DNA of 20,000 nt from an uncultured virus (IMG/VR IMGVR_UViG_3300011883_000001) (Duplodnaviria; Heunggongvirae; Uroviricota; Caudoviricetes; Schitoviridae): IMG/VR virus record IMGVR_UViG_3300011883_000001; one strand, given 5' to 3'. The notes beneath the pieces were generated by a model, which had not been told where the DNA came from, did not search any database, and worked only from the letters and a program-made list of their open reading frames with translations. The position numbers were made by a program, and so were the translations under genes. Positions 4,011 through 17,728 of the stretch are shown piece after piece. Position 1 is the first letter of the stretch. Every line of letters starts with the position of its first letter.

Positions 4011-4018
4011 TATCATTT

Positions 4019-4041
4019 GAGGACGCTATGCGTCCTCTTTT
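4019..4041 (+). terminator. Rho-independent terminator
   Basis: GAGGACGC-tat-GCGTCCTC-TTTT. Confidence 0.8.
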
Positions 4042-4068
4042 GACTTTTAAATTATTACGGATTAAACC

Positions 4069-4335
4069 ATGATCCTTGCAATAGAATATTCCCAAGAAGC
4101 TGTAGATAAGCTACGCACACTAGGATTTACACGTTCATCTGGTTACTCCATACCTGAAGATGAAGTAGTTAGCATTCACTTCTCAGATCAGGCTAAAAAG
4201 TATGTATTCCTTGATACTCCATCAGGATTACCTTACGTCAACCTAAACTGTTTAGAAGCAGTTCTATTACTTTCTCCTAGCTATGAATCAACTAAAGAAT
4301 TTTTACCTATTCTTGAGGAATTAAACCAATGTTAA
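4069..4335 (+). CDS. Small hypothetical protein, expanded paralogue family
   Basis: N-terminal EAVDKLRTLGF and C-terminal LEAVLLLSPSYESTKEFL; GGATTAAACC RBS. Confidence 0.8.
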   Translation: MILAIEYSQEAVDKLRTLGFTRSSGYSIPEDEVVSIHFSDQAKKYVFLDTPSGLPYVNLNCLEAVLLLSPSYESTKEFLPILEELNQC

Positions 4336-4589
4336 TTAAAACCAAAGATACAGCTGCTATTCGTAAGCTGCTTGAGAAACATGGATACACAGAAGCAAAT
4401 AACTATACAAATGAGACTTCTGTTTATATTGTAGTTGCTACTCTTGCTAGAACTTTTAATAAAAGAATAGATGATTTTGACATCTATATGAACTCAACCA
4501 GCTTACGTAAAGCTCTTAGTGTTCAATCACTTGCACCTACATCAGATATAGGCGAAGAACTTATTCGGAGTACTTTTAGTAGTAATTAA
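4329..4589 (+). CDS. Small hypothetical protein, probable member of the expanded family
   Basis: DTAAIRKLLEKHGY...LSVQSLAPTSD; GAGGA SD. Confidence 0.75.
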   Translation: MLIKTKDTAAIRKLLEKHGYTEANNYTNETSVYIVVATLARTFNKRIDDFDIYMNSTSLRKALSVQSLAPTSDIGEELIRSTFSSN

Positions 4590-4652
4590 TATATACCTAA
4601 TTACTCTTAAATGACTCTACAACCTTTAAAAATTTAGTTAAGGAACTATCCA

Positions 4653-4940
4653 ATGCCAATTGACCTATCCATTAAACCAAAGCAAATAGAAGACAATACT
4701 GATTTGTCTGATATGGAAATCTTTGGTCATATTACACGTATGTTAGGTGAGGACCTTATGGTGTCCTTATCTGATGATACCAAGGGTTATTTGCTCTTAC
4801 ATGCGCGTGAAACTTATAAAGATATCTATACCTATGTAGAGTGGTTTACCAATGCTACAGGACAAGTGCCAACTAATGACGCACTAAAGATTATCATTGA
4901 TTCCATACTGCTTGAACGAGTACAAGCAACTAAACCATAA
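4653..4940 (+). CDS. Hypothetical protein
   Basis: AAGGA SD; 95-aa ORF in an operon-like run. Confidence 0.75.
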   Translation: MPIDLSIKPKQIEDNTDLSDMEIFGHITRMLGEDLMVSLSDDTKGYLLLHARETYKDIYTYVEWFTNATGQVPTNDALKIIIDSILLERVQATKP

Positions 4941-4981
4941 GAAAGCTGTTATAGCTCTTTTTCATTGGGATACCCTAAAGA

Positions 4982-5245
4982 ATGAAGCTTTTAAGAAATT
5001 TGCTTATTACACCTAATACTCCAGAAGTAATTACTCAATTAGAAACTCTAGGTTTTACTCAATATAGCAATGAAACGCATACTTTTAAGTATGTCACTAT
5101 CACTGACCCTCGTAAGATTACAGGAGCTTCCAATATTTCAAAAATGCGTAAGGTAATTCCTAATGACAAATTCATCCATATGATCACATTGCTTCAATTA
5201 AATGATGATCCGCACTATCGTCGTATGATTATGGGAATGTATTGA
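4982..5245 (+). CDS. Small hypothetical protein, expanded paralogue family
   Basis: NTPEVITQLETLGF...IPNDKFIHMITLLQL. Confidence 0.75.
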   Translation: MKLLRNLLITPNTPEVITQLETLGFTQYSNETHTFKYVTITDPRKITGASNISKMRKVIPNDKFIHMITLLQLNDDPHYRRMIMGMY

Positions 5246-5310
5246 AGTCTCTGTTCTTAAATCAACTACCATCAAGTGATTGCAGTCCTATTAGAATTGT
5301 TCTCTCGGTC

Positions 5311-5326
5311 TGCTTCGCAGTAACGG
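5311..5326 (+). promoter_or_regulatory. N4-type virion RNA polymerase hairpin promoter 3
   Basis: cTGCTTCGCAg-taac-GG; the stem extends by one C:G pair and the spacing to GG is unchanged. Confidence 0.8.
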
Positions 5327-5367
5327 CAATCATGCCATCAATTAAATTAATTTAAGGAATAAATCCC

Positions 5368-5670
5368 ATGGCTTTTAATAAACCAAATACTGCTGCTGCT
5401 AAATCAACTGCTACTGAAGCTCGTGAAGCTCGTACTACTATCGCTTATGTGAATCTTGGGATTCCTTTAGAAGATGGCAGTACTGCAAAGGTTGCAGGTG
5501 ATCTAACCATCCGTTTATATGCTGAAGACGAAACTCATGCTGAATTCGTTCAAGCTATCCGTGAAGGTCACATTGCAGAAGATGAAGCAGGTGAATACAT
5601 TATGGTTCGTGTATCTCTTGCACGTGATCCTTCTCAACCACGTCCAGGTATCAAATGGAATCGTGACTAA
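5368..5670 (+). CDS. Probable N4 gp2-like ssDNA-binding activator of RNAP II
   Basis: Monocistronic unit with its own hairpin promoter and terminator. MAFN..low-complexity leader then AYVNLGIP..DGS..KV resembles the conserved early protein of N4-like phages (recalled similarity only). Confidence 0.5.
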   Translation: MAFNKPNTAAAKSTATEAREARTTIAYVNLGIPLEDGSTAKVAGDLTIRLYAEDETHAEFVQAIREGHIAEDEAGEYIMVRVSLARDPSQPRPGIKWNRD

Positions 5671-5677
5671 TAATATC

Positions 5678-5712
5678 TCCTCTAACCCTAACGGGTTAGG
5701 GGATTTATTTTT
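5678..5712 (+). terminator. Rho-independent terminator
   Basis: TCCTCTAACCC-taac-GGGTTAGGGGA followed by TTTATTTTT. Confidence 0.85.
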
Positions 5713-5744
5713 AAATTCATTATTAATTCTTGATAGGAAACAGT

Positions 5745-6041
5745 ATGGATATTCAAGATATGTTTTACGTAGTTAATACTCCTGAAGTAGTAGAGTTATT
5801 ACTTTCTACAGGTTATCAACCTTTTTCTCCTGAATCCTTAAAACGTAAATATTTATGTGTTAATGATATTCTTATCTTAGGTAATACTGATTACGATATA
5901 GTTAAAGCATCTCCAGAGCTTAACTATATACAATTAAAACAAATACTAAGTATGAAGATATTATTATCTGATTCTGATTGGCTTCAATTTCTCAGAGACT
6001 TTACTAAAGATTTACCTAGAGCAGAGGATATAAATGAGTAA
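5745..6041 (+). CDS. Small hypothetical protein, expanded paralogue family
   Basis: YVVNTPEVVELLLSTGY...LNYIQLKQILSMKILL; AGGA SD before ATG 5745. Confidence 0.75.
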   Translation: MDIQDMFYVVNTPEVVELLLSTGYQPFSPESLKRKYLCVNDILILGNTDYDIVKASPELNYIQLKQILSMKILLSDSDWLQFLRDFTKDLPRAEDINE

Positions 6042-6171
6042 TGCATTAATAGCTTTCTGTGTGATTTATATGTTTTCTATCCCATTAACTCAACAGAATA
6101 AACGTAAATACCAACTAATTACGTTAATCACTTTAATCCCTATTTACGGGATAACAAGCATAGGATTTTAA
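6034..6171 (+). CDS. Small membrane protein, 45 aa (MSNALIAFCVIYMFSIPLTQQNKRKYQLITLITLIPIYGITSIGF)
   Basis: GAGGA SD; fills the gap between its neighbours; two hydrophobic segments around KRK. Confidence 0.6.
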   Translation: MSNALIAFCVIYMFSIPLTQQNKRKYQLITLITLIPIYGITSIGF

Positions 6172-6174
6172 ACC

Positions 6175-6519
6175 ATGGAATATACTAATGATTTTTATAG
6201 ATTAGAATCTTCTCAAATAATATTTAATTATAAACCTGAAACAGTAAAGTATATTGAATCACTGGGTATAACTATAGATTCAGCAGTATATACTAGATCT
6301 AATTTAGCATACGTATATATAGAAAATCCTTTAACATTATGTGTAGATACAGACCCTATAATACACGAGATAGTTATACCTGATCATTTAGTAAAACAAT
6401 ATCTATCATTGTACGTTCTAGGTTTAAACATACCTGACATTATTAAATGTCTTCCTGACGTCTGGGATTATCAAGAACATATTGACTGTTCTGGACGTGA
6501 CAATCCGTTCATCAAGTGA
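6175..6519 (+). CDS. Small hypothetical protein, probable member of the expanded family
   Basis: IFNYKPETVKYIESLGI...IPDHLVKQYLSLYVL; AGGA SD. Confidence 0.75.
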   Translation: MEYTNDFYRLESSQIIFNYKPETVKYIESLGITIDSAVYTRSNLAYVYIENPLTLCVDTDPIIHEIVIPDHLVKQYLSLYVLGLNIPDIIKCLPDVWDYQEHIDCSGRDNPFIK

Positions 6520-6549
6520 TCCCAATCCTGTTGTTCTGTTTCTCTCGTT

Positions 6550-6565
6550 TGCTTCGCATTTGTGG
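6550..6565 (+). promoter_or_regulatory. N4-type virion RNA polymerase hairpin promoter 4
   Basis: TGCTTCGCA-tttgt-GG; shares the upstream TTCTCTCG with promoter 3; heads the gene run that includes RNAP II subunit 1. Confidence 0.8.
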
Positions 6566-6598
6566 CATTCGCCTCTTATCTAAACCAAAGGATAAACC

Positions 6599-6862
6599 AT
6601 GAAACGTAAATCTGTAGATCCTACTGTAGCTATGTATTTCAAATTTATTAAAGATAATCATAAACGTATGTTTATTGATGGTTCTAATTATAAGTGGTTA
6701 GTTGAATCTTCTGAAACTGACTACAAGAACATGTTGGATATTATTGACATCATTGTTCAAATGCCTTCAACTAATAAAGATTTAGTTGAACGTTACCGTC
6801 AGGTAGCAGAGTTTATGTTAAATGAGATGTTATATGCATTTAAGGAACGTGAAAATGAGTGA
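6599..6862 (+). CDS. Hypothetical early protein
   Basis: AAGGATAAACC-ATG directly after promoter 4. Confidence 0.8.
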   Translation: MKRKSVDPTVAMYFKFIKDNHKRMFIDGSNYKWLVESSETDYKNMLDIIDIIVQMPSTNKDLVERYRQVAEFMLNEMLYAFKERENE

Positions 6863-7238
6863 AGCTCAGGCTACAGTTAGTAAGATACTAAAGAATGTTT
6901 CTATAGGATCTTCCCTTACTTATAAAGATAAGTCTTCAACAGTCATTTATGATTATCAAATATCTAAAGACGATAAGCTTATTTATAAGATTATAGCTAC
7001 TTATTTTAATGCAGAAGTTAAGTTTAAAAACCGTTGTGTTATTTATAAGAGACTACCTGAATTAACTGAAGATCCTTTACTAGCTACTTATATCTTAGCT
7101 TTATATTTACAAGCTAAAACTGAACAGAATAGTACTGATGAAACCAAGATGAGTTTAACTACTAAATTTATTATTGGGTTTACTTTATTAGCTCTTACTT
7201 ATCTCAATACAATTGCAGTATCTAATGCAATTTCTTAA
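6855..7238 (+). CDS. Hypothetical protein with C-terminal membrane anchor
   Basis: AAGGA SD before ATG 6855; C-terminal FIIGFTLLALTYL; LPELTEDPLLATYILA motif shared with 7674-8057. Confidence 0.75.
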   Translation: MSEAQATVSKILKNVSIGSSLTYKDKSSTVIYDYQISKDDKLIYKIIATYFNAEVKFKNRCVIYKRLPELTEDPLLATYILALYLQAKTEQNSTDETKMSLTTKFIIGFTLLALTYLNTIAVSNAIS

Positions 7239-7672
7239 TGGAATTAATTATGCGTATCATTGATAAATTACAAGCAGCTATTGAATTAGCTCAAGGCTAT
7301 CGTAAAGAGATTGTTGACTTTGAATCTCTTAAAGATAAAACAGTATTGGAAGTTTATTCTACTGAAGACGTCATTGAGATTCTTACTGATGATGGTTTGT
7401 ATTACCTGGAACATATTCAGGATTGTTGTGAACAAGTCTACGTAGAATCCATTGTAGGTGATCTACAATCCCTTGTAGGTCAAACAATTCTATTAGCTGA
7501 AGAATCTACAAATTCAGAAGGAGAACCTTCAAATGAATGGCAAGATTCATTTACCTGGACATTCTATAAATTAGCTACCATTAAAGGATATGTAGATATT
7601 CGTTGGTATGGTACGTCTAATGGTTATTACTCTGAATCAGTGACATGTAGGAAACTTACAGTAGGGCGTTAA
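7238..7672 (+). CDS. Conserved phage protein of unknown function (QDCCE / WTFYKLAT / SNGYYSE family, DUF7448-like)
   Basis: HIQDCCEQVYVESIVGDL...SFTWTFYKLATIKGYVDIRWYGTSNGYYSESV is a widespread phage signature (recalled). Confidence 0.8.
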   Translation: MELIMRIIDKLQAAIELAQGYRKEIVDFESLKDKTVLEVYSTEDVIEILTDDGLYYLEHIQDCCEQVYVESIVGDLQSLVGQTILLAEESTNSEGEPSNEWQDSFTWTFYKLATIKGYVDIRWYGTSNGYYSESVTCRKLTVGR

Positions 7673-7673
7673 T

Positions 7674-8057
7674 ATGCAACCTTTGTATGAAACTGCACTA
7701 GACAGGATCAAAGACATAAACATGGATGCTGAATTAGAACCTAGATCTCATTTCACTTATTTCAGTGGTACTACTAAGGTAAGACATCAAACTGTATTCT
7801 GGGCATATGACAATCTAGATTTAGCTATATGTATTACTTTTCATTTACCACAAATAAAAGAAGGCATCTCTAAGAGGTTTCTCTTACCTCTTGAGGAATT
7901 ACCTACTGATCCCTTGGCTATTACATTAGTATTAGCTACTTGGGTAGAGTTGGAAGAAAAAACTAAACGTAGAGAGTTAAACCAATTAACTCTACGTATT
8001 CTCCTGGCTCCTCTAATTATCTTCATCACTGTAGCTCTCGCTGCTTACTTCGCTTAA
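7674..8057 (+). CDS. Hypothetical protein with C-terminal membrane anchor
   Basis: C-terminal ILLAPLIIFITVALAAYFA; LEELPTDPLAITLVLA motif. Confidence 0.75.
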   Translation: MQPLYETALDRIKDINMDAELEPRSHFTYFSGTTKVRHQTVFWAYDNLDLAICITFHLPQIKEGISKRFLLPLEELPTDPLAITLVLATWVELEEKTKRRELNQLTLRILLAPLIIFITVALAAYFA

Positions 8058-8079
8058 TTAAATCTTAAAGGAATAAACC

Positions 8080-9039
8080 ATGTATAAATCTCCTGCAGAA
8101 ATGCAAGAAGAGATCGAACTCTCTTTATCTCGTAAACGTATCAAGGAGGTAGTCCTTGAAGAACTGACTTCTGATATGGACATGTTAGATAAGATTATTG
8201 AAGGTATTGAATACCTTGATGCATGGACCAAGACAGAATCTACCTACGAATCCAAACAAATGCGTAAAGATCATATTGCATCCATGGATTTACAAGAGAT
8301 TGTAGAAACTATCTATGTCACTATCCTTGCTCAGAAAGCTCCTAGTACCTTGAATAACCTTGCATGTCAGTTAGCAGGTATCCTTCAGTTTGAAGAGAAC
8401 TATCAAGGTATTACAGCTATTGCTGAGTGTATTGCAGTGCTTTGCCATACCAACGTGTATGACTTAAATAAGCCTCATAAGTACAGTTCTATCCTTGTAG
8501 TACCTAACTTCACTCTCTCAGATGAAACCAAGGAATTCATTGAGAATGCTCAGTATTTACCTCCTATGAAAGTATTACCTAAGTTCTTGATCCATAACCG
8601 TAGTAGTGGGTACAAGACGATTAAAGGTGATTCCCTGATTCTAGGAGGTAAACATAACCATCATACTGAAGATATCTGTCTGGATGTCTTAAACATTATG
8701 AACAGCATACCTCTGGTATTAAATCAAGAGATGTTAGCTATCCAGCAAGAACCTGAGAAAGACTTAGATATTATTGAAGACTTTGTAGGTACTCAACTGG
8801 AATACCAGAAAGCTATTAGCCAACAGAAAGAGAACTGGAAGTTATTCCTTAAACGTTCTGATCTGGCTTATCAATTAATGGGTACTGATCCGTTCTATCT
8901 CACCAACAAGGTAGATAAACGAGGACGTATCTATACCCAGGGATATGCAATCAATATTCAAGGTAACTCTTACCAGAAAGCCTGTATTGATCTTGCACGT
9001 AAAGAACACGTACACGTACCAGAGGATTTCTTTAAATGA
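8080..9039 (+). CDS. N4-like RNA polymerase II subunit 1 (gp15-like)
   Basis: YLPPMKVLP, SLILGG.HNHH..DICLDVLN and FYLTNKVDKRGRIYTQGYAINIQG (DxRGRxY motif of T7-type RNAPs). Confidence 0.93.
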   Translation: MYKSPAEMQEEIELSLSRKRIKEVVLEELTSDMDMLDKIIEGIEYLDAWTKTESTYESKQMRKDHIASMDLQEIVETIYVTILAQKAPSTLNNLACQLAGILQFEENYQGITAIAECIAVLCHTNVYDLNKPHKYSSILVVPNFTLSDETKEFIENAQYLPPMKVLPKFLIHNRSSGYKTIKGDSLILGGKHNHHTEDICLDVLNIMNSIPLVLNQEMLAIQQEPEKDLDIIEDFVGTQLEYQKAISQQKENWKLFLKRSDLAYQLMGTDPFYLTNKVDKRGRIYTQGYAINIQGNSYQKACIDLARKEHVHVPEDFFK

Positions 9040-9317
9040 TGCATTTAATCTTGCCAATATCTTTTGCAAAGAATCCAATCTATTTTTCTTATTCAGGACA
9101 CTACTTTTGCAATGCTGTGTATATGGCGTTGCATACCCAACACATCACAGTATTTAAAGTAAATGCTGGATTACTCAGAAAGAATTATCCATCACGTAAT
9201 ATTATAACTGTTTCTGCTGATCAAGCAGCAGCTATTGGTATGTTATTTGATGTTTTTGCTCAGCAAGATGTTGAATCATTCTATAAAGCTATTGAACAAC
9301 TGTTGGAGGTAAATTAA
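9036..9317 (+). CDS. Small hypothetical protein, possible member of the expanded family
   Basis: ATGA overlap with the RNAP subunit 1 stop; C-terminal ITVSADQAAAIGMLF...FYKAIEQLL. Confidence 0.7.
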   Translation: MMHLILPISFAKNPIYFSYSGHYFCNAVYMALHTQHITVFKVNAGLLRKNYPSRNIITVSADQAAAIGMLFDVFAQQDVESFYKAIEQLLEVN

Positions 9318-9668
9318 ATGTTATGGACAGAAAGAGACATTATGTATCTCAGTGCTTTATATACTGATGAATCATTTGAATCAGCTAAACACTTAATAGA
9401 TCCAACTAAGTATAGAAAACTCACAGAATTAACTGCTAACCGCGTAGTTATAACGTTTGCGTATTCTGAAATAGGATCTCAGCTTGTACACGCTTCTGAA
9501 TATCCTCTTATATTACTGGATGTTCGCTATGTAGAAACAATAGTTAAATTAGATGATCTTATTCAGATACATCAGTTAATGCTTCTATGCGGTAATCAAC
9601 CTGATGTATTTCAGACCATGGCTTCAGAATATTTAAACCAACAAGGATATAAACCAAATGAATCCTAA
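9318..9668 (+). CDS. Small hypothetical protein, expanded family (closest to 9658-9996)
   Basis: GGAGG SD; VKLDDLIQIHQLMLLCGNQPDVFQTMASEYL. Confidence 0.8.
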   Translation: MLWTERDIMYLSALYTDESFESAKHLIDPTKYRKLTELTANRVVITFAYSEIGSQLVHASEYPLILLDVRYVETIVKLDDLIQIHQLMLLCGNQPDVFQTMASEYLNQQGYKPNES

Positions 9669-9996
9669 TTCTTATTTAGATCTTGATGTGCTTTATTCAG
9701 TAGAAGCACATGATGAGTTTGCTCATCTAATGAATGACGAAGGTATAACTTCCTTTGAAGAGCAGGAACGGTTAACCATTACATTTAAAAATTCTTATTA
9801 TCCACATATTCTAAATGAATATCCGCAGTATCCCTTAACCATCTATAAACGTCATAAAGCTAACCTAAATCGTTGCTTAACTATCAAACAGTTCAAACAT
9901 GTAGTTAATCTCTTTCAAATTACTCTAGGTAATGAAGAAGCATTTAATGAAATGATCAAAGCTTATTTAATCTCAGAAGGAATCAAGCATGATTGA
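9658..9996 (+). CDS. Small hypothetical protein, expanded family
   Basis: AAGGA SD; LTIKQFKHVVNLFQITLGNEEAFNEMIKAYL. Confidence 0.8.
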   Translation: MNPNSYLDLDVLYSVEAHDEFAHLMNDEGITSFEEQERLTITFKNSYYPHILNEYPQYPLTIYKRHKANLNRCLTIKQFKHVVNLFQITLGNEEAFNEMIKAYLISEGIKHD

Positions 9997-10348
9997 TGCA
10001 CATTTAGCACTTAAAGTTCCAGTAGTTAAAGACAATCGCCAAGTACTTATAGATGCTGGTTTACTTAATCCTCATGTATCAACCCAATATTTACATTTGA
10101 ATATTGAACCCTCTACAACTACCTGGAATAAACAATGGTCTTTACGTTATGAAGATTCTTCTTATAACGGACGTACTTCAATCACAATTAAAGCTGAAGA
10201 GTTTATTAATGTATTTCATTTATTACAGTTAAATGCTCGATTACCTGTTGAAGCTTATCTTGGACCAGTACGAATTTATGCCCAACATCGTACTAACTTC
10301 AAGAATAATCCTCATTGGAAACACTTCCCAACTACTGAAACTGAATAA
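9989..10348 (+). CDS. Small hypothetical protein, expanded family (closest to 10360-10743)
   Basis: NRQVLIDAGLL...WSLRYEDS...IKAEEFINVFHLLQL. Confidence 0.8.
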   Translation: MIDAHLALKVPVVKDNRQVLIDAGLLNPHVSTQYLHLNIEPSTTTWNKQWSLRYEDSSYNGRTSITIKAEEFINVFHLLQLNARLPVEAYLGPVRIYAQHRTNFKNNPHWKHFPTTETE

Positions 10349-10359
10349 GGAATAAACCA

Positions 10360-10743
10360 ATGCTACAACCTAAAGTAATCTTTGCTGTATCTCTTAAGAA
10401 AAAGAATGCTGACAAAGAACGAGCTATCCTGATTAAAGCAGGTCTACTTACATCTGCTCAATCTAATAATTATGCTTATCTTATTAAAAATTATCCTTGG
10501 CATTTAGGCTGGAAGTTAACTTTACAAGATTCTTATAAAACGTCTACTTACAGACCATTCTTAATAGTTACAGCTAAACAGTTTGTACAACTCTACCATT
10601 TGAGTCAGTTAATTCCTAACTGTGAAGCTACTACCTTACTTGATTCTATTAAGCTAACTGCACGTAACAAATCAGTTCTTCTTTGGGGGGATGCAATAAG
10701 TAAGCAATATTATGCGAATCGTTATTTAAAGGATGCAGCTTAA
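10360..10743 (+). CDS. Small hypothetical protein, expanded family
   Basis: ERAILIKAGLL...WKLTLQDS...VTAKQFVQLYHLSQLIP. Confidence 0.8.
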   Translation: MLQPKVIFAVSLKKKNADKERAILIKAGLLTSAQSNNYAYLIKNYPWHLGWKLTLQDSYKTSTYRPFLIVTAKQFVQLYHLSQLIPNCEATTLLDSIKLTARNKSVLLWGDAISKQYYANRYLKDAA

Positions 10744-11051
10744 TGACCTATATAGAGCAGTATATTAATGATATCTCTGTTGGATGTAATGTATCTAAAG
10801 AATTAATTCAGGAATTTGCAGGTAAAGTTATTCTACCTAGAGAAGATATTCATCAGTATTTAAGGTTTAACCTACCTTTTCCTGGACATTATATTGATAA
10901 GGATCGTATGCACGAATCTTTATGGAATACTGAATATCAACCAATGATTTTACTTACTCAAGATCATTTCAGATCTCTGTATCAAATTTTAGTATTAACT
11001 GTAGATATCAACGTATTTCGTGCTTTTTTGAAAGAGCATAATTATCTCTAA
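10743..11051 (+). CDS. Small hypothetical protein, expanded family
   Basis: TAATG coupling; LLTQDHFRSLYQILVLTVDINVFRAFL. Confidence 0.75.
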   Translation: MTYIEQYINDISVGCNVSKELIQEFAGKVILPREDIHQYLRFNLPFPGHYIDKDRMHESLWNTEYQPMILLTQDHFRSLYQILVLTVDINVFRAFLKEHNYL

Positions 11052-11080
11052 CCAACCTAATTTACTTAAGGAATAAACTC

Positions 11081-11194
11081 TTGAAATCTTATTCACCTAT
11101 TGAATACCTATGCATTGATATTGCTAACTGCTATGGTATGATAAATGCTAACCATAGAGGATTGACAAATGAAAGTATGTACCCACTGCAATAA
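11081..11194 (+). pseudogene. Orphaned 5' end of the RNAP II subunit 2 gene (19 codons, running on as a 37-codon ORF)
   Basis: AAGGAATAAACTC-TTG then KSYSPIEYLCIDIANCYG, 16/18 aa identical to KSYTPIEYLCIDISNCYG at 11804-11857. Confidence 0.85.
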
Positions 11195-11795
11195 ACTATT
11201 ACCATATACAGCGTTTGCTAAACAATCTACAGGTAAACAAGGTTTACGTGCTGATTGTAAAGAATGTCATAAAGCATATGGATACACCGAAGAAGGTGTT
11301 ACTAAAGCTATGTATGCAAATCAGAAATCTAAGTCCAAGAAGCGAGGTCATGTACTACCTAACTATACATGGGAGCAATTCCATGCATGGTGTATATCAC
11401 AACCTAATTGGACTTTACTATTCAATGCTTGGGTTGCATCAGGTCATCTTAAAGATCTCAAACCAAGTGGTGACAGATTAGATGACTACCAATCTTACAC
11501 CTTAAACAACCTTCAATTAGTCACTACTAAGCAGAACTTAGATAGATACCGTAATGATGCTATTCAAGGGATCAACACTAAAACTTGTGTACCTGTTAGC
11601 CAATATACCTTAGACGGCGTGTTTGTTAAAAAACACCATTCCGTAAGTGAAGCTGCACGTGTAGTAGGTGATACAGCTACCAATATTCGTATGGCTGCAC
11701 AAAATAAAGAAATTAAACGTAAAAACCCTGATGGTACATACCGCATTGAAGTACGAAAACAATGTAAGGGTTTCAGATGGAAATTTGAGGATTAA
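11169..11795 (+). CDS. Free-standing homing endonuclease (His-Me/HNH-like core, N-terminal Zn finger, C-terminal NUMOD1-like domain)
   Basis: CTHC...CKEC; KPSGDRLDDYQSYTLNNLQLVTTKQN; PVSQYTLDGVFVKKHHSVSEAAR...CKGFRWKF. Confidence 0.85.
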   Translation: MKVCTHCNKLLPYTAFAKQSTGKQGLRADCKECHKAYGYTEEGVTKAMYANQKSKSKKRGHVLPNYTWEQFHAWCISQPNWTLLFNAWVASGHLKDLKPSGDRLDDYQSYTLNNLQLVTTKQNLDRYRNDAIQGINTKTCVPVSQYTLDGVFVKKHHSVSEAARVVGDTATNIRMAAQNKEIKRKNPDGTYRIEVRKQCKGFRWKFED

Positions 11796-11797
11796 AC

Positions 11798-12412
11798 ATG
11801 TTTAAAAGCTATACCCCAATCGAATATCTATGTATTGATATAAGTAATTGCTACGGCTTAGATAAAGACTTATTTGAAGACAGAATCCAATGGGTTAAAG
11901 ATAACTTTCATCAGTTAGATTCCTTTGTGGATAAAGCTGATGATAAGTATCAGTACATCAAAGCTGTCATTGCTTTACGTGAAGTATTAGCTGGTAAAGC
12001 TACAGGTCATACTGTAGCTCTGGATGCAATCTGTTCTGGTATCTCATTAATGAGTGCTATGACAGGGTGTATTAAAGGTTGTAAAGCTACTGGTTTAATT
12101 GACACTGGTTTACGTCCTGACGCTTATTCTGCTGTAACGGTAGAGATGAACAAGATTCTAACTAAACAAGGACTAGCAGCATTGGAGGTGTCACGTAAAG
12201 AGACGAAAGCTGCCATGATGACAAAAAGTTATGGATCATCTAATAAACCAAAGGAAATCTTTGGTGAAGATACTCCAGCTCTGAAAGCATTTGAAGATGC
12301 TTGTCATGCTGTTGCTCCTGAAGCATTTAAGCTCATGCAAGACCTGATTGATGCTTGGCAGCCTTATACCTTAGAACATTCTACATGCCTGATGGCTTCT
12401 CTGTGCGTTTAA
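11798..12412 (+). CDS. N4-like RNA polymerase II subunit 2 (gp16-like), N-terminal part; leaves the homologous frame near 12383
   Basis: YLCIDISNCYGLDK..FEDRIQW; motif A LDAICSG; motif B RKETKAAMMTKSYGS. Confidence 0.92.
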   Translation: MFKSYTPIEYLCIDISNCYGLDKDLFEDRIQWVKDNFHQLDSFVDKADDKYQYIKAVIALREVLAGKATGHTVALDAICSGISLMSAMTGCIKGCKATGLIDTGLRPDAYSAVTVEMNKILTKQGLAALEVSRKETKAAMMTKSYGSSNKPKEIFGEDTPALKAFEDACHAVAPEAFKLMQDLIDAWQPYTLEHSTCLMASLCV

Positions 12413-13032
12413 AGACTATGGAAACTGTAGAGAAAACTCTTCGTATTGATGAGCTTGACGATACAGCAATCACAGTCCACATCAAAGAGAACAAAGGATC
12501 TAAACGTGGTGTAGCTTTAGCTGCTCATGTAGTCCATTCTGTAGATGCGTACGTACTTCGTACTATGCAACGTAGATGCTCATTTGATTCTATTCAGGTA
12601 GGTCAGATAGCAGACATGATTCAGTGTGAGTTATACGAAGCATCTAAACCAACATTAGTAGATCCTAAGCTTGTAGAGCTTGTAGAGCTGTATAAAGCTA
12701 CAGGTATAGCTGACGTACGTATTATTGATTACATCACTGATACGTCAATTGGGGCTGTTCCACAGCCTCTATTAAAGAAGCTTGTTGCTATCCTGGATAA
12801 GATGCTTGAACTAGGTAGCTTTGATCTACTCACAGTACACGACTGCTTTAAGTCGCACCCCAACCACTGTGATGCAGTACGTTACTGGTACAAGGAGATT
12901 TGCGCAGAGATTGCAGATTCTAATATCCTGCAATGTATCTACTCTCAAATCGTAGGTTATGAAGTGACATTTACTAAAGCCATGAATGGTATTGGTAAGC
13001 TCATCCGACAAGCTAACTATCAACTATCTTAA
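12355..13032 (+). CDS. N4-like RNA polymerase II subunit 2, C-terminal part (homology from about 12385), -1 frame relative to the N-terminal part
   Basis: MPDGF.V, LAAHVVHSVDAYVLRTMQRRC, motif C TVHDCF, HPNH...VRYWYKEI.AEIADS, terminal NYQLS. Confidence 0.92.
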   Translation: MAALYLRTFYMPDGFSVRLKTMETVEKTLRIDELDDTAITVHIKENKGSKRGVALAAHVVHSVDAYVLRTMQRRCSFDSIQVGQIADMIQCELYEASKPTLVDPKLVELVELYKATGIADVRIIDYITDTSIGAVPQPLLKKLVAILDKMLELGSFDLLTVHDCFKSHPNHCDAVRYWYKEICAEIADSNILQCIYSQIVGYEVTFTKAMNGIGKLIRQANYQLS

Positions 13033-13037
13033 TTTAT

Positions 13038-13065
13038 AGACTACCTTTGGGTAGTCTTTATTTTT
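13038..13065 (+). terminator. Rho-independent terminator
   Basis: AGACTACC-tttg-GGTAGTCT-TTATTTTT right after the RNAP subunit 2 stop. Confidence 0.85.
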
Positions 13066-13079
13066 CTTAGGAATAAATT

Positions 13080-13403
13080 ATGCAACAGATTAATGAAGTA
13101 GCGGATGTATTCTTTTTAAATAAACCAGAATATTGTGAGTTATTTAAAGAGCTAGGTTATAAAGCTTATCGTATAGATGATGCTGAAGTCTTTGTAGCAA
13201 CAACTCAGATCACACTTAAACGTATTAAAGAAGAAAAAAGTTTCACTACCTTTGGTACTAATAACGATACCGATAGAGCATTAAATACTTCTATCCCTGT
13301 AACTAAGCAGATATTAATTCTTATGGATCTTATGCCTACAGAAGAAACCTATATAGCTGCTGTAAACCAAATCTTAAAGGAACAAATCAATGAAAGTATT
13401 TAA
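13080..13403 (+). CDS. Small hypothetical protein, expanded family
   Basis: FLNKPEYCELFKELGY...VTKQILILMDLMPTEETYIAAVNQIL. Confidence 0.8.
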   Translation: MQQINEVADVFFLNKPEYCELFKELGYKAYRIDDAEVFVATTQITLKRIKEEKSFTTFGTNNDTDRALNTSIPVTKQILILMDLMPTEETYIAAVNQILKEQINESI

Positions 13404-13662
13404 TTCTATTTATATTAAGCGCAATCGAGCGAACACTAATTTAATCATGGAACATGGATTACATATTGTAAGTTTTAATCCAGGACGTTTACTTAAAATA
13501 GATATTGCTTTTCCTGCAAGTTCTCCTAAAGGATTCCATACTGCTGTGTTTACTTCAGGAGATAACCCAAAGAAAGTATTATCAACTAAAGAGTTTAAAG
13601 CAGCTTTACTGATGCCTTCCTACGAGAGTCTACAAGCTTATTTAAACACTGTAATTAAGTAG
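13390..13662 (+). CDS. Small hypothetical protein, expanded family
   Basis: NTNLIMEHGL...LSTKEFKAALLMPSYESLQAYLNTV. Confidence 0.8.
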   Translation: MKVFNSIYIKRNRANTNLIMEHGLHIVSFNPGRLLKIDIAFPASSPKGFHTAVFTSGDNPKKVLSTKEFKAALLMPSYESLQAYLNTVIK

Positions 13663-13669
13663 GTGAGTT

Positions 13670-13915
13670 ATGGCTGTTAATTTTTTCTGGGTATCTATTG
13701 AAGAACCAGGAGTTATAGAGTTTCTGTTGCAACAGGGATTTAGGGAAACAACTCCTGTAACTTCCCCAAATAAACCAAGAATGTCATATTACGTAGATGT
13801 TCAAAAGAAACACTTCTTTGAAACTGTGACATTACCTACATGTACTCTTGAACAGCTTAAGTTATATCTAGCTTTCCCTGAGCTTAGACCTCTCGAATTT
13901 AAACCAGACTTTTAG
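13670..13915 (+). CDS. Small hypothetical protein, expanded family
   Basis: EEPGVIEFLLQQGF...CTLEQLKLYLAFP; AGGTGA SD. Confidence 0.8.
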   Translation: MAVNFFWVSIEEPGVIEFLLQQGFRETTPVTSPNKPRMSYYVDVQKKHFFETVTLPTCTLEQLKLYLAFPELRPLEFKPDF

Positions 13916-13923
13916 GAATAAAT

Positions 13924-14217
13924 ATGCAATTACCTCCAGCTATTTATATAGAAATACCTATCAATACAGTTGAGGCGAATAAACGTGGATTTACTATTTT
14001 AGGAGCTAAAATTTCAATAGCAGCTTATTCAGAAAGACTAATTAAAATTATTCCTAACTACCGTAGTATGTCTCTAAAAATTGTTAAAGATTGGAGAGGA
14101 TTTCCTGTCACCTTAGAACAATTAAGTGTTATTAGCATGTTACCAACATACGAATCTATCTATGTTTACCTGTTTGCTCTAGGGCATGATTTTAAGTATC
14201 CACAAACATATCGGTGA
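13924..14217 (+). CDS. Small hypothetical protein, expanded family (sister of 14223-14513)
   Basis: WRGFPVTLEQLSVISMLPTYESIYVYLFALGHDFKYPQ. Confidence 0.8.
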   Translation: MQLPPAIYIEIPINTVEANKRGFTILGAKISIAAYSERLIKIIPNYRSMSLKIVKDWRGFPVTLEQLSVISMLPTYESIYVYLFALGHDFKYPQTYR

Positions 14218-14222
14218 TTAAT

Positions 14223-14513
14223 ATGAAATTACCAGAAGTTGTTTATATAGTTACTAACTATACTCACAAAGAACTTAAAGAAAGAGAAGTAACCTTCTTT
14301 GGTCATCCTATTCAAGGTTTTGATCCCACAAACACTCTTATTGCTCTTTACTCTGATGAAACATCTTTAACCTTATGGAAAACACATGGTTGGCAAGGAT
14401 TTCAAGTAACTGATGAACAATTATCTGTTATATCTTTAATACCTTCTTATGAAGGCATCGTTCATTACCTGGCTTCGTTAGGTGATACTTTTGATTACCC
14501 TCAACATAGTTAA
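14223..14513 (+). CDS. Small hypothetical protein, expanded family
   Basis: MKLPEVVYI aligns with MQLPPAIYI of the upstream gene; WQGFQVTDEQLSVISLIPSYEGIVHYLASLGDTFDYPQ. Confidence 0.8.
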   Translation: MKLPEVVYIVTNYTHKELKEREVTFFGHPIQGFDPTNTLIALYSDETSLTLWKTHGWQGFQVTDEQLSVISLIPSYEGIVHYLASLGDTFDYPQHS

Positions 14514-14573
14514 GGATGCTCTGCATCCTAAGATGGTTGGTTGGTCCAACATTTCTCTTAAAGGAAAAAACTC

Positions 14574-15218
14574 ATGCTTAAACCAAAACATACAAATACC
14601 AAGACTGTCATCTATCAAGGTCTTGAGATTCAAATTCCTGAAGATGCTCAATGGATCTTCCTACACATGGCTCGTAATGATGTACATATCTGTACTTCAG
14701 TTGAAGAACCTGAATTCAAGAAGTTTACTTGGCAGCAAAAAGATAAGACAGTCATTATGGCTGTTGATGCTAAACAGATGTCTATTGGTCAAATCCAAGA
14801 CTCTCTCGAACACGTTAATGGTTTGCAACTACCACTACCTTTATTAGGTGAATCAGTTCCTGCTGAAGAACCTCAAGTAGATCTTCGTGAAGAAATCTTT
14901 AAAGAACAGATTGATCATTTAGACACAGTATTAGCTAAATTCAGTGAAGCTGCCTTCAAAGCAATTAACGGTGACGATACTCCTGAACGTAAGTATGAAA
15001 TTGTCCTTGGTCCTCAAGGATATGCTACTCAATTAGTTGATAAGATTAACAAGCTTAATGAAGTTACAGCTAATCGTTTAGAAAGCATTGAATCAGAACA
15101 GGATGAAGAAACTTGTGATTGTCCTGTATGCTCTGCTGGACGTAAACAAGAAGAGCCATCTAAAGAAGATGTACTTCGTTTCTTAGCTGAATTGTTTGCT
15201 ACTAAAACTCGTCATTAA
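14574..15218 (+). CDS. Hypothetical acidic protein with C-terminal CDCPVC motif
   Basis: AAGGA SD; 214 aa; EETCDCPVCSAGR. Confidence 0.85.
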   Translation: MLKPKHTNTKTVIYQGLEIQIPEDAQWIFLHMARNDVHICTSVEEPEFKKFTWQQKDKTVIMAVDAKQMSIGQIQDSLEHVNGLQLPLPLLGESVPAEEPQVDLREEIFKEQIDHLDTVLAKFSEAAFKAINGDDTPERKYEIVLGPQGYATQLVDKINKLNEVTANRLESIESEQDEETCDCPVCSAGRKQEEPSKEDVLRFLAELFATKTRH

Positions 15219-15234
15219 ACCAAGGATGTAATCT

Positions 15235-15504
15235 ATGTTTGATCTTCGTGTGTCTATCAATCCTTTAGAATCAGATATGCTTAATAGAACACCTCATAGA
15301 TTACGTGATCTTTTTTCAGGTTTTAGATTTACACGGTATTCTTTAAATGACTGTGAATATATCCAAATCAGTTCATCTAAAGAAAATACTGAAACGTTAA
15401 CAGTGAAAGAATTAACACCAGAATTGTTTCAAGTACTTGAAATGTTCCCCTCTGCCGAGGCAAGATATAACTTCCTGGTCAGCCATACCCTACAAGCTGA
15501 TTAG
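15235..15504 (+). CDS. Small hypothetical protein, expanded family
   Basis: LTPELFQVLEMFPSAEARYNFLVS; AAGGA SD. Confidence 0.75.
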   Translation: MFDLRVSINPLESDMLNRTPHRLRDLFSGFRFTRYSLNDCEYIQISSSKENTETLTVKELTPELFQVLEMFPSAEARYNFLVSHTLQAD

Positions 15505-15665
15505 GAGAAGCCTTGGTTCATGGCTTTAAGTGAATTAAGCACTTTACTGCCTCTACTAGCTCACCCCGACTAGAATGCGGTGTAATGGACAAGTCAAGGT
15601 CTACAATACCTTTTCCAGATGTTCCCTTGCATCTGACGAAACAAGGAACAATTTCACTCTTTACA
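15505..15665 (+). ncRNA. Candidate structured RNA with H-type pseudoknot (function unknown, strand uncertain)
   Basis: Long ORF-poor gap with several hairpins and interleaved CAGATG/CATCTG and CCTTG/CAAGG stems; a terminator follows. Confidence 0.4.
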
Positions 15666-15699
15666 GCCTATTTGTACCCCAACAGATAGGTTTTTTTTT
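15666..15699 (+). terminator. Rho-independent terminator
   Basis: CCTATTTGT-acccca-ACAGATAGG followed by T9. Confidence 0.8.
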
Positions 15700-15713
15700 A
15701 TCAGGAATAAAAC

Positions 15714-15983
15714 ATGTTATTGAGCAGATATCAGATTCAAGTTAAAGACCACACTTTATATGAACTACCTAGGCTTAATTTTGAATACTCAGGAGGAATA
15801 TTCAAAGACGATACTGTTTTGGTTATACGCAATGACAATGCAAATACTAAACCTTTAATTACTTTAAGTTGTACTCAAGATTATGCAGTACTTCAGCAAC
15901 TCACTGTCGAACAGTACACAGTACTTACGTTCCTTCCAACTATTGAAAGTATCTGTACATACCTAGAATATTTGAAGGAATAA
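15714..15983 (+). CDS. Small hypothetical protein, expanded family (sister of 15987-16262)
   Basis: RYQIQV...LPRLNFEY...LTVEQYTVLTFLPTIESICTYLEYL. Confidence 0.8.
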   Translation: MLLSRYQIQVKDHTLYELPRLNFEYSGGIFKDDTVLVIRNDNANTKPLITLSCTQDYAVLQQLTVEQYTVLTFLPTIESICTYLEYLKE

Positions 15984-15986
15984 AAG

Positions 15987-16262
15987 ATGAAACGGCGTTA
16001 TCAAGTTGAAGTGCTTGGATACTTAGTAGGTACGCTCCCACCTTTAGATTTTAAGTATGATAGTATTATTTATAGCAATGATAAGTACTTGCATGTTCTT
16101 CCATACAGAAAAGCAGATCCATTAATTACGTATACTGACTATACACCTTATGCAGATCTAATTCAGATCACATTACCTCAATATTATGCCATGAGACTAC
16201 TTCCTACAATAGAAGCAGTATGTGCTTTCTTAGATGGTTTAGAACAGGAAAATACTAAATGA
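15987..16262 (+). CDS. Small hypothetical protein, expanded family
   Basis: RYQVEV...LPPLDFKY...ITLPQYYAMRLLPTIEAVCAFLDGL. Confidence 0.8.
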   Translation: MKRRYQVEVLGYLVGTLPPLDFKYDSIIYSNDKYLHVLPYRKADPLITYTDYTPYADLIQITLPQYYAMRLLPTIEAVCAFLDGLEQENTK

Positions 16263-16567
16263 ATAATATAATTATTTTTAGAGTAGCATGTAAGCAACCT
16301 GTAGATTTACCTGCTTTAAATATTCCATACAGTATTCCTGTTCTAACAATTGATCAGGCTATTTTAATTGATGGCAATAACGGAACAGCACAAGGAATTA
16401 TTAACCCAGATATATCCAAATATACAACTATGCTTATCACTCTAGAACAGTATCTAGTTATGACATTATTGCCTAGTGCTACAGCATGTATTCATTATTT
16501 AAATTCTCTACTTGAAGAGAATGCTCCGCATTCTTCTGTGGTCTTAAATCCAGACATTAAGGAATAA
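16259..16567 (+). CDS. Small hypothetical protein, expanded family
   Basis: LPALNIPY...ITLEQYLVMTLLPSATACIHYLNSLL. Confidence 0.8.
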   Translation: MNNIIIFRVACKQPVDLPALNIPYSIPVLTIDQAILIDGNNGTAQGIINPDISKYTTMLITLEQYLVMTLLPSATACIHYLNSLLEENAPHSSVVLNPDIKE

Positions 16568-16570
16568 ATT

Positions 16571-16882
16571 ATGTTCACTAAAGAACAACGTCAAAACATT
16601 GTTGCTGATTGGCAAACCAATACTTATAGCTATGCTGATTTAGCTCGTAAGTACGATAGCTCTCAATCCAATATTGCTCGTCTACTGCATGAAGAACGTG
16701 CTGTACGTACTGTCATTATTAAAGGTAAACCACGTACTGAAACAGTGACTAATATTCGTCATAAAGCGAACTGGGAAAATAAATTATTAGATACCCTTCG
16801 CTTTCATGGTTTAGATGATGCTGATAAACTCCAGCGTTTTATTTCGGAGGCTAAACAGAATGCACAAACCAATCGAACCTAA
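16571..16882 (+). CDS. Helix-turn-helix DNA-binding protein
   Basis: FTKEQRQNI...SYADLARKYDSSQSNIARLL fits an HTH pattern. Confidence 0.75.
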   Translation: MFTKEQRQNIVADWQTNTYSYADLARKYDSSQSNIARLLHEERAVRTVIIKGKPRTETVTNIRHKANWENKLLDTLRFHGLDDADKLQRFISEAKQNAQTNRT

Positions 16883-17039
16883 ACCATTGTATCCAAGTAT
16901 GGATACTCTGGATGAAGCTGTAGCTGAGATTAAAGCAAGACTGCCTATTGAAAACAGTATTGAACTCAGTGCAGCTCTTGGCTTATACCACAACACACTC
17001 CTGAGCATTATTGAACAGGAAACCAATAATCAGGAGTAG
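16860..17039 (+). CDS. Small conserved N4-like phage protein (LYHNTLL motif)
   Basis: GGAGG SD before ATG 16860; PLYPSMDTLDEAV...LPI....L..YHNTLL, recalled from N4-like genomes upstream of the ATPase. Confidence 0.7.
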   Translation: MHKPIEPKPLYPSMDTLDEAVAEIKARLPIENSIELSAALGLYHNTLLSIIEQETNNQE

Positions 17040-17041
17040 TT

Positions 17042-17371
17042 ATGTCTTCTGAACAACAACTAACTCAATGGCAGCAGATTACTTTTAAGAATACTGAATC
17101 AATTACGAAACTTATTGAACAGTATGGTATTGAAATTAACAGACACGCTAACATGAATAATTCATATTATTTCATTGATCATCATGATGATGATGTAGAA
17201 GGTTTGGATGACCTGAGTTTGAATACTCACGATATGGTTTATGATATTGATATCTTCTTAGATGAAGATGCTGCTGCTGGTCTTCTTAGCTTGATGACTA
17301 TACTCAAGGATAACTTTGAAGCTATTAAAGCTTATGTTCTTGAACATGCATCAGAATATCCAGGAGATTAA
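17042..17371 (+). CDS. Small acidic protein, probable member of the expanded family (sister of 17374-17715)
   Basis: WQQITFKNTESITKLIEQYGI...LLSLMTILKDNFEAIKAYV; AGGAG SD. Confidence 0.8.
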   Translation: MSSEQQLTQWQQITFKNTESITKLIEQYGIEINRHANMNNSYYFIDHHDDDVEGLDDLSLNTHDMVYDIDIFLDEDAAAGLLSLMTILKDNFEAIKAYVLEHASEYPGD

Positions 17372-17373
17372 AC

Positions 17374-17715
17374 ATGAAGGTAAATATTCCTCGATTACTC
17401 TACTGGAATCAGATCATGTTCAGCAACACTGAACAAAACAGACAATATTGTTATGCGTTTGGTTTATGTGATGAGGAAGATTTAAAACGTTTTGACCATT
17501 ATGCAAAAGATGATCCTTATTTATTCATAAGCGAAACATCTGATGAAGATTTTGAGCTTAATGGTTGTTTTTGTGTATGTGAGTTTGGAAAGATTGATTC
17601 AAAAGATTTATTAATTCCAGACCAACTTGTTGTACCTTTAGTTAGCTACCTTCAGCTAACCAATCCAACTTTAAATGAAACAGCTCAATTTTTAGAGCAA
17701 CTACTTAACCCTTAA
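17374..17715 (+). CDS. Small protein, probable member of the expanded family
   Basis: WNQIMFSNTEQNRQYCYAFGL...IPDQLVVPLVSYLQLTNPTLNETAQFLEQLL; AGGAG SD. Confidence 0.8.
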   Translation: MKVNIPRLLYWNQIMFSNTEQNRQYCYAFGLCDEEDLKRFDHYAKDDPYLFISETSDEDFELNGCFCVCEFGKIDSKDLLIPDQLVVPLVSYLQLTNPTLNETAQFLEQLLNP

Positions 17716-17728
17716 TAGGAAAAAACAA

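Follow-up and report, generated by a model that had tools for sequence, protein, structure and literature searches.

A divergent family of small proteins with a predicted common α/β fold in the early/middle region of an N4-like phage

The early regions of N4-like phages consist mostly of unannotated ORFans, and the locus described here raises the question of whether its many small genes are separate unknowns or variants of one protein. The window, i.e., the whole stretch of 20,000 nucleotides analyzed from an uncultured schitovirus (IMG/VR record IMGVR_UViG_3300011883_000001), covers the early/middle region of a phage of the N4-like group (Schitoviridae) and contains 22 candidate small open reading frames (ORFs) between positions 4069 and 17715, each named below by its first nucleotide. 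A sequence-only reading had regarded about 20 of them as paralogues with conserved ends and a variable middle, expanded as a gene accordion and docking on a common partner; all peptide strings quoted there were found in the ORF translations at the corresponding coordinates. Based on profile tests, 12 ORFs of 87-114 aa firmly constitute one family, while seven more are probable and three are possible members (Table 1). On balance, it seems probable that this is a family of small single-domain α/β proteins, restricted to one lineage and very divergent, whose copies would be host-directed binders with varied surfaces and different targets.

In an all-against-all blastp comparison of 35 ORFs of the window, 13924 and 14214 were 40% identical over 94 aa (E 5e-19), which was the highest pair identity in the window. 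ORF 15714 matched 15987 (E 1.4e-13) and 16259 (E 5e-8), the latter two matched each other (E 1e-5), and the 13924/14214 group was joined to the 15714/15987/16259 group at E 2-3e-4. The other related pairs were 9989-10360 (E 5e-8), 10360-10743 (E 0.004), 9318-9658 (E 6.6e-4), 4982-5730 (the latter being ORF 5730/5745; E 1.5e-4) and 17042-17374 (E 0.007). When a profile was built from five core members within the window, only those five scored above shuffled decoys, and real small ORFs were enriched just under the decoy line. We then applied an iterative hidden Markov model (HMM) search to 183 early-region ORFs from the window, phages At2, XC38 and nACB1, and one IMG/VR contig, accepting real ORFs that exceeded the best of about 3400 shuffles by more than 1 bit. 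The search converged at 36 members, with 12 in the window, 10 in At2, eight in XC38, five in nACB1 and one in the IMG/VR contig.

To each of the 12 window members we applied a leave-one-out profile from which the blastp-detectable relatives of the tested protein were removed too. All 12 scored 10.3-25.4 bits, above every one of 2171 decoys (best decoys 7.6-9.1 bits), the result being marginal for 4982 and 6175. The similarity of the firm members thus extends beyond adjacent pairs, the point on which the existence of a family had been made to depend. Scored in this way, the C-terminal pattern h-T-x-E-Q-h-x-x-h-x-x-[LM]-[LI]-P-[ST]-x-E-[AS]-x-x-x-[YF]-L holds for all 12, and the results for the 10 looser ORFs are mixed. 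As a negative set, 171 real late-region ORFs of related loci scored 4.0 bits at most. A Shine-Dalgarno (SD)-like GGA/AGG core was found upstream of 20 of the 22 candidate starts, compared with 19% when all ATGs of the window (480) are considered; no such site precedes the start at 14223. Considering these sites and the tight packing on the same strand, the family ORFs are read from their sequence as real genes.

In the case of the looser copies, an extended iteration with more genomes added 4329, 10743, 17042 and 17374, giving 16 window members and 46 in total, each addition being only 1-3 bits over the best decoy, so that profile drift is possible. A profile of the N-terminal half matched at the expected residues in 4329, 13670, 17042, 17374 and 10360, which ranked 2, 33, 83, 33 and 47, respectively, against the 2171 decoys. 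For 4329 this match was 5.9 bits at residues 6-23, equalled by two decoys, and the full HMM gave 11.0 bits; that of 17042 lay at residues 10-26. ORF 13670 gave 2.9 bits at residues 10-25 with the N-terminal half (33 decoys as high) and 1.3 bits at residues 54-64 with the C-terminal half (41 as high), both in the expected place, and it reached 8.3 bits with the full HMM and was not recruited in the extended iteration. ORFs 4653 and 6599 showed no signal in the half-profile tests and were rejected as members.

Using hhalign, we compared the 36-member alignment with other groups against a null of 60 column shuffles. The group of 9989, 10360 and 10743 (sub-family B) together with XC38 gp88 scored 15.9 over 71 collinear columns (shuffles 6.9 ± 1.4), the same sub-family merged with 9036, 9318 and 9658 scored 14.8 (6.1 ± 1.2), and the pair 17042/17374, aligned C-terminus to C-terminus, scored 18.0 (8.4 ± 1.4), with no shuffle as high in any of the three. 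An unrelated control pair, 6822/7674, scored 7.7 (8.7 ± 1.8; 42 of 60 shuffles as high), and the pair 9318/9658 alone scored 9.7 (8.8 ± 2.1; 14 of 60 as high). Based on the N-terminal element, the profile-profile scores and the independently predicted topology described below, 4329, 9989, 10360, 10743, 13670, 17042 and 17374 are probable members. ORFs 9036, 9318 and 9658 are possible members by sequence: 9036 takes part in the merged alignment, and 9318/9658 alone gave no signal. The earlier estimate of about 20 copies in 6-7 kb stands as an upper bound that includes the probable (2232 bp) and possible (972 bp) tiers and sums to 6684 bp; the firm set comprises 12 ORFs and 3480 bp.

It is possible, though we consider it the less likely case, that the looser copies at 9036-9996, and perhaps also 4329 and 17042/17374, have no kinship with the family and are small helical proteins whose amphipathic C-terminal helices look alike. 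The absence of an hhalign signal for 9318/9658 alone, the weak half-profile tests and the small gains of the extended iteration agree with such a case, whereas the correct placement of the N-terminal element in 4329, 13670, 17042 and 17374 and the collinear hhalign scores of the looser groups, 6-7 standard deviations over the column shuffles in a test where the control pair gave no signal, speak for membership.

To see what the shared sequence represents, we examined AlphaFold2 (AF2) models of two members, 13924, modeled with an alignment of 12 paralogues, and 10360, modeled with an alignment of six members of its own sub-family only. The 13924 model (predicted local distance difference test, pLDDT, 78.8; predicted template modeling score, pTM, 0.71) shows a strand at 7-10, a helix at 15-20, short strands at 24-29, 39-42 and 60-61, and helices at 64-72 and 76-85. 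The 10360 model (pLDDT 68.3, pTM 0.63) shows a strand at 7-11, a helix at 17-26, strands at 38-43, 51-56 and 67-69, and helices at 72-84 and 90-108. The order β-α-β-β-β-α-α is thus common to both independently derived models, in line with the common fold that had been anticipated. In both models, conserved polar residues stand directly before the helices (N14/N16, T63/T71 and P74-T75/P86-N87), and N16, T71 and P86-N-C-E-A90 of 10360 match the positions of N14, T63 and P74-T-Y-E-S78 of 13924. Helix α2 in the 10360 model exceeds that of 13924 by about one turn, which explains the penalty that sub-family B takes in sequence profiles. When the models were searched against BFVD, the weak top matches of 13924 included four XC38 and two Presley proteins, and seven weak matches were common to the top-50 lists of both models, among them one family member of XC38 and two proteins of Presley. 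An Atlas model of 5745 had a pTM of 0.66 with no named family near.

Column entropies of the 36-member alignment were lowest at L18, G22, V62, L70, M72, L73, P74, E77, A/S78, Y/F82, L83, L86 and E/D89. Hydrophobic residues occupy L18 in 97% and V62, L70, M72 and L73 in 89-100%, and the other positions are kept in 19 of 35 (G22), 31 of 35 (P74), 26 of 35 (E77), 29 of 36 (A/S78) and 32 of 36 sequences (Y/F82); [ST]75 is frequent (22 of 36) and lies slightly outside the lowest-entropy set. On the models, these positions would correspond to helix-start signatures, namely N-T-P-E before α1, T-x-E-Q before α2 and P-[ST]-x-E-[AS] before α3, together with a Gly following α1 and those helix positions that form the hydrophobic core. 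Because the conserved positions coincide with the hydrophobic core and with the residues that start the three helices, we infer that the shared motif is a fold signature rather than an exposed docking peptide. The middle varies in both length and sequence in the alignment, which agrees with the description of conserved ends and a variable middle, and the isoelectric points (pI) of the 36 members range from 4.4 to 10.0, with 23 of 36 below 6. The central β region and the net charge would accordingly be free to vary, and the non-conserved charge speaks against a role common to all copies in binding nucleic acids or mimicking DNA.

The sequence-only reading had assigned a different role to the motif, in which the C-terminal helix docks all copies on one partner and the variable middle recruits or blocks targets. 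The C-terminal motif is indeed the best-conserved part of the family (P74, E77 and Y/F82), with one polar and one aromatic position conserved beside the core residues, but we consider this role unlikely, since the conserved positions follow the pattern of a buried face and helix starts, with a Pro-Ser/Thr-x-Glu-Ala/Ser helix start and a Gly among the best-conserved columns. Furthermore, the sub-family 9989-10743 retains the motif yet gains one helical turn in α2, and 17042 has no Pro-Ser/Thr, changes that a fold tolerates more easily than a docking peptide.

The family was not recognized by the sequence-only reading, and our searches of Pfam, PHROGs, NCBIfam and the PDB, by sequence and by fold, agree with this. 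For the 22 ORFs, Pfam and NCBIfam (E ≤ 0.01) and PHROGs (E ≤ 0.001) returned no meaningful match, the sole profile row being 17042 against PF22849 with 16.8 bits, under the cut-off of 28.3. When PHROG matches of the 12 members were followed to E = 1, eight different families appeared, each matched by one member only. A sequence profile search of the PDB gave a best E of 0.39, and Foldseek against the PDB gave a best E of 2.5, with no convincing solved counterpart for either AF2 model. In the ESM Atlas, 13924 had no usable match and 5745 matched only unnamed viral clusters (scores ≤0.83; template modeling score, TM, ≤0.56). A tblastn search of 14223 against 50,697 phage records (E ≤ 10) gave no match. 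The 12-member profile, searched against 1.84 billion representative proteins, returned 12 proteins whose lengths equal those of the 12 queries and which we read as the queries themselves, and a word-indexed search of 5.8 billion proteins returned six, all of them the window's own, as singletons on one 75,311-base contig. Literature searches found no description of the family. In passages of the nACB1 paper (PMC10057805), neither paralog* nor duplicat* occurs; in those of the Achromobacter N4-like paper (PMC3915230), duplicat* is absent and 'paralogous' appears a single time, in the methods and unrelated to the family.

To place the family among related phages, we compared the window with Acinetobacter phages At2, XC38 and nACB1, whose small early/middle ORFs belong to the same family by profile. 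Examples are At2 7420-7698 and 7703-7981 and XC38 gp83, gp82, gp81, gp77, gp75 and gp66 ('HCP-like protein'). These members bear the same C-terminal [LM][LI]-P-[ST]-x-E-A-x-x-x-Y-L motif and are placed alike, in arrays downstream of the phage RNA polymerase II (RNAP II) genes, yet one-to-one orthologues of the window ORFs are not recognizable by blastp. Their annotation is 'hypothetical' throughout, and nothing here supports the name 'HCP-like' given to gp66. Copy numbers in the first and extended iterations are 12-16 in the window, 10-11 in At2, 8-9 in XC38 and 5-8 in nACB1. A search of other Schitoviridae with the family HMM did retrieve members in these three phages, but nothing convincing when applied to the N4, CB1 and PJN101 early regions; the best outside scores were 10.0 bits (PJN101 1193) and 8.9 bits (Presley_22), compared with 8.4 bits for a decoy.

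In the case of sub-family B, XC38 gp88 (130 aa) is a homologue of 9989 (32% over 113 aa, E 1.8e-13) and reaches 40.9 bits when scored with the sub-family HMM. In BFVD, the 10360 model is matched best by XC38 A0A5P8PR93 (E 2.1e-5, TM 0.61), which we read as gp88, both being 130 aa. Like sub-family B in the window, gp88 lies between the RNAP II subunit genes, where XC38 has one such gene and the window has three copies, three other small ORFs and an HNH-type endonuclease gene. In Presley, eight ORFs of 96-132 aa (Presley_22 to Presley_29, 9772-12679) form a paralogue array directly downstream of RNAP II, and their N-terminal strand-helix element '...LL..LGFP' resembles that of the main family. 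Their hhalign score against it was 12.5 over the first 25-33 columns (shuffles 6.2 ± 1.3, none of 40 as high), whereas their shared C-terminal motif differs (A-R-x-N-L-L-G-I-K). The Presley array is at most a putative relative of the family. N4 gp70/gp71, which are located at the right end of N4 unlike the family, scored between -2.6 and -0.1 bits when tested with three HMMs (main, extended and sub-family B), and about half or more of the decoys scored higher. No PHROG of the gp70/gp71 family was among the matches of the 12 members to E = 1, and kinship was rejected on the below-zero scores.

A tree of 35 members was nearly star-like, with a median terminal branch of 2.23 substitutions per column and only two of 32 inner branches well supported. 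Both join pairs of the window, namely the tandem neighbours 13924/14223 (99/94) and 4982/6175, two genes apart (95/88). Window members clustered on the tree (4 label changes compared with a shuffled mean of 10.3, none of 500 shuffles being as low), and of the 11 family pairs with blastp E <0.01, six are immediate neighbours and two more are one gene apart. Considering the near-star tree, its long terminal branches and its low support, the family is old and saturated as far as its sequences tell, and the frequent adjacency of nearest relatives points to some tandem duplication in this lineage. The family would have grown by tandem duplication and then diverged to saturation, and copies would also have been gained at several sites among conserved genes. 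Copies lie at at least four sites, i.e., upstream of RNAP II, between its subunits, downstream of it, and between the DUF6833 and MoxR genes. At2, XC38 and nACB1 have none between DUF6833 and MoxR, and both these copies and the set of six small ORFs between the RNAP II subunits are seen in the window only. Just two of the 16 window members compared have a blastp match (E ≤ 0.01) in At2, XC38, nACB1 or Presley, compared with identities to relatives of 44-49% for the RNAP II small subunit, 40-62% for the large subunit and 49-58% for MoxR. At the level of sequence, the turnover of the family is thus shown to be rapid relative to neighbouring genes.

A poxvirus-type gene accordion is a viral multigene family of recent, near-identical copies. 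By contrast, the closest pair in the window is 40% identical, and this, the median terminal branch and the few supported branches do not bear out an accordion in the sense of a recent copy-number expansion. Long DNA repeats were absent from 1700-8100, and the part at 13-17.7 kb was judged by protein identity only.

Among phage proteins, small early ones are known that act on targets in the host, in takeover or against defence. Considering the place of the copies among early/middle genes and their pattern of evolution, each copy would be an early/middle host-directed binder, for host takeover or counter-defence, and the common scaffold would present a different surface to a different target, with no single shared partner. 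Characterized takeover or anti-defence proteins showed no sequence or fold link in our family, PDB and fold searches; AcrIIA4, a small anti-CRISPR protein of αβββαα topology, is a lead only. Three points weigh against this overall reading of the family. For helical proteins, shuffled decoys make a lenient null; the ORFs graded probable or possible lie just 1-3 bits over decoys or have hhalign P values of 0.006-0.03; and the strongly conserved E77 and Y82 could make a functional patch.

The other readings of function seem to fit the conservation and copy-number pattern less well than diversified binders do. If the proteins served the phage's own machinery, e.g., by assisting RNAP II, replication or the MoxR/VWA pair, their location would fit, with copies that flank and separate the RNAP II subunit genes and others immediately before the MoxR ATPase gene; the sub-family B homologue XC38 gp88, too, lies between RNAP II subunit genes. 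We regard this as very unlikely, since core machinery factors are usually single-copy and conserved, whereas the copy number of the family varies among relatives, its orthologues are unrecognizable by blastp despite RNAP II being 40-62% identical, and N4, CB1 and PJN101 have no convincing member in their early regions. Least likely of all, and hardly to be expected, is that α2-turn-α3, two short C-terminal helices linked by a three-residue turn in the 13924 model, is a helix-turn-helix (HTH) of small DNA- or RNA-binding regulators, because basic members (such as 13390, pI 10.0; 4982, pI 9.6; 13924, pI 9.4) are outnumbered by the acidic ones, the α3 consensus E-A-x-x-x-Y-L has no conserved basic residue, and no HTH family was matched in Pfam, NCBIfam or PHROGs and no HTH protein was prominent in fold searches.

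As for the diversified-binder reading, its broadest form is tentative and rather unlikely to hold in full. It would make the family a new superfamily with a fold absent from the PDB, confined to Acinetobacter-type schitoviruses, maybe including the Presley array, taking up as much as 6.7 kb and acting as diversified binders of host targets in counter-defence or takeover, as a phage analogue of the multigene host-range families found in large eukaryotic viruses. About 20 ORFans in one phage and 23-28 in three relatives would reduce to one scaffold, so that some fifty unknowns become one tractable problem for which one structure and one assay design cover all. If the proteins are host-directed binders, they would offer a natural library, ready for use, on one small and stable scaffold and a likely source of new takeover or counter-defence activities against Acinetobacter-type hosts. 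Should the fold prediction be correct and truly lack a solved counterpart, the fold would be of structural interest as well.

Table 1. Family members and other features of the window. Leave-one-out scores are in bits, with the best decoy in brackets.
Feature	Coordinates	Strand	Grade	Length (aa)	Leave-one-out	Remarks
4069	4069..4335	+	firm	88	23.4 (9.1)	...LLLSPSYESTKEFL; SD-like site upstream
4329	4329..4589	+	probable	86		N-terminal element; weak C-terminal motif LAPTSD
4982	4982..5245	+	firm but marginal	87	10.6 (7.9)	NTPEVITQLETLGF
5745	5745..6041	+	firm	98	16.4 (7.9)	NTPEVVELLLSTGY
6175	6175..6519	+	firm but marginal	114	10.3 (8.6)	C-terminal motif with insertion
9036	9036..9317	+	possible	93		C-terminus motif-like by eye only; 4.1-6.5 bits with family HMMs
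9318	9318..9668	+	possible	116		blastp to 9658
9658	9658..9996	+	possible	112		LTIKQFKHVVNLF...AFNEMIKAYL; 6.3 bits with family HMM
9989	9989..10348	+	probable, sub-family B	119		XC38 gp88 homologue
10360	10360..10743	+	probable, sub-family B	127		VTAKQFVQLYHLSQLIPNCEA; modeled by AF2
10743	10743..11051	+	probable, sub-family B	102		extended iteration 11.4 bits
13080	13080..13403	+	firm	107	15.4 (7.8)	NKPEYCELFKELGY ... LMDLMPTEETY
13390	13390..13662	+	firm	90	25.4 (8.1)	LSTKEFKAALLMPSYESLQAYL
13670	13670..13915	+	probable	81		EEPGVIEFLLQQGF ... CTLEQLKLYLAFP; C-terminus degenerate, shortened
13924	13924..14217	+	firm	97	18.8	modeled by AF2
14214/14223	14214..14513	+	firm	96-99	22.3	start GTG 14214 or ATG 14223
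15235	15235..15504	+	firm	89	15.6 (8.7)	LTPELFQVLEMFPSAEARYNFL
15714	15714..15983	+	firm	89	23.5	
15987	15987..16262	+	firm	91	22.0	
16259	16259..16567	+	firm	102	23.6	
17042	17042..17371	+	probable	109		NTESITKLIEQYGI; C-terminus without Pro-Ser/Thr
17374	17374..17715	+	probable	113		...LQLTNPTLNETAQFLEQLL; evidence as for 17042
Tail-fibre gene	3-1760	+				
Long series of small ORFs	between tail-fibre gene and RNAP II small subunit	+				
N4-type RNAP II small subunit	8080-9039	+				
RNAP II large subunit, two ORFs	11798-12412 and 12385-13032	+				
MoxR-type ATPase	17729-18754	+				
DUF2201/VWA gene	from 18810	+				
TGCTTCGCA motif copies	2511-2526, 3262-3277, 5311-5326, 6550-6565	+				candidate promoters
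Strong terminator-like hairpins	4019-4037, 5678-5703, 13038-13057, 15665-15692	+				
Conserved early protein	5368-5670	+		100		
Paralogue pair unrelated to the family	6822-7238 and 7674-8057	+				blastp E 0.003
DUF7448 protein	7238-7672	+				PF24240, E 4e-26
HNH/EndoVII-like endonuclease	11169-11795	+				phrog_1035, E 4e-16
C-D-C-P-V-C protein	14574-15218	+		214		weak matches to XC38 gp78 and nACB1_075
Small conserved protein	16571-16882	+		103		weak match to 'late transcriptional activator' PHROG (E 4.6e-4)
DUF6833 protein	16815-17039	+				
N runs	3158-3213, 19640-19649					56 and 10 bases

All substantial ORFs of the window, including those of the family, lie tightly packed on the + strand. 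By the MoxR protein, the closest phages are At2 (58%), XC38 (56%) and nACB1 (49%), and one IMG/VR locus was matched at 37% identity. No DNA-level match was found when window positions 13000-17800 were compared by megablast with the 50,697 phage records.

A 16-nt motif, TGCTTCGCA-N-T-NNN-GG, occurs in four copies compared with 0.03 expected, contains a short inverted repeat (TGC-TTC-GCA), and lies each time in the gap upstream of an ORF. By analogy with the annotated hairpin promoters of phage CB1, these sites are candidate early promoters of the virion RNA polymerase. Two copies share an additional 38 nt of upstream similarity (5270-5307 and 6510-6547). The terminator-like hairpins end 21-41 nt before the starts of the family genes or arrays at 4069, 5745, 13080 and 15714. 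Neither of the two upstream arrays has its own TGCTTCGCA site, and these arrays may therefore belong to a different, perhaps middle, transcription class. The conserved early protein at 5368-5670, which has its own TGCTTCGCA site and terminator, is kept in all four Acinetobacter schitoviruses compared (27-45% identity, including Presley_13), unlike the surrounding family members.

The RNAP II large subunit is encoded in overlapping frames, where the first ORF corresponds to residues 1-199 and the second, from the ATG at 12385, to residues 202-420 of the At2 subunit. The break near 12380 may come from a frameshift or from a sequencing error, or the gene may be genuinely split there; the XC38 large subunit is split elsewhere, by an endonuclease gene. 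The gap between the RNAP II subunit genes (9036-11795, about 2.8 kb) holds six small ORFs and the HNH/EndoVII-like endonuclease, compared with one or two small ORFs in relatives. This endonuclease is 35-36% identical to endonucleases of XC38 and nACB1 located after the large subunit.

Each protein of the 6822/7674 pair ends in a hydrophobic stretch of about 20 residues, and the pair brackets the DUF7448 protein. Three non-family genes conserved in relatives (14574-15218, 16571-16882 and the DUF6833 gene) are interleaved with the arrays. The second of the two N runs interrupts the translation of the DUF2201/VWA gene.

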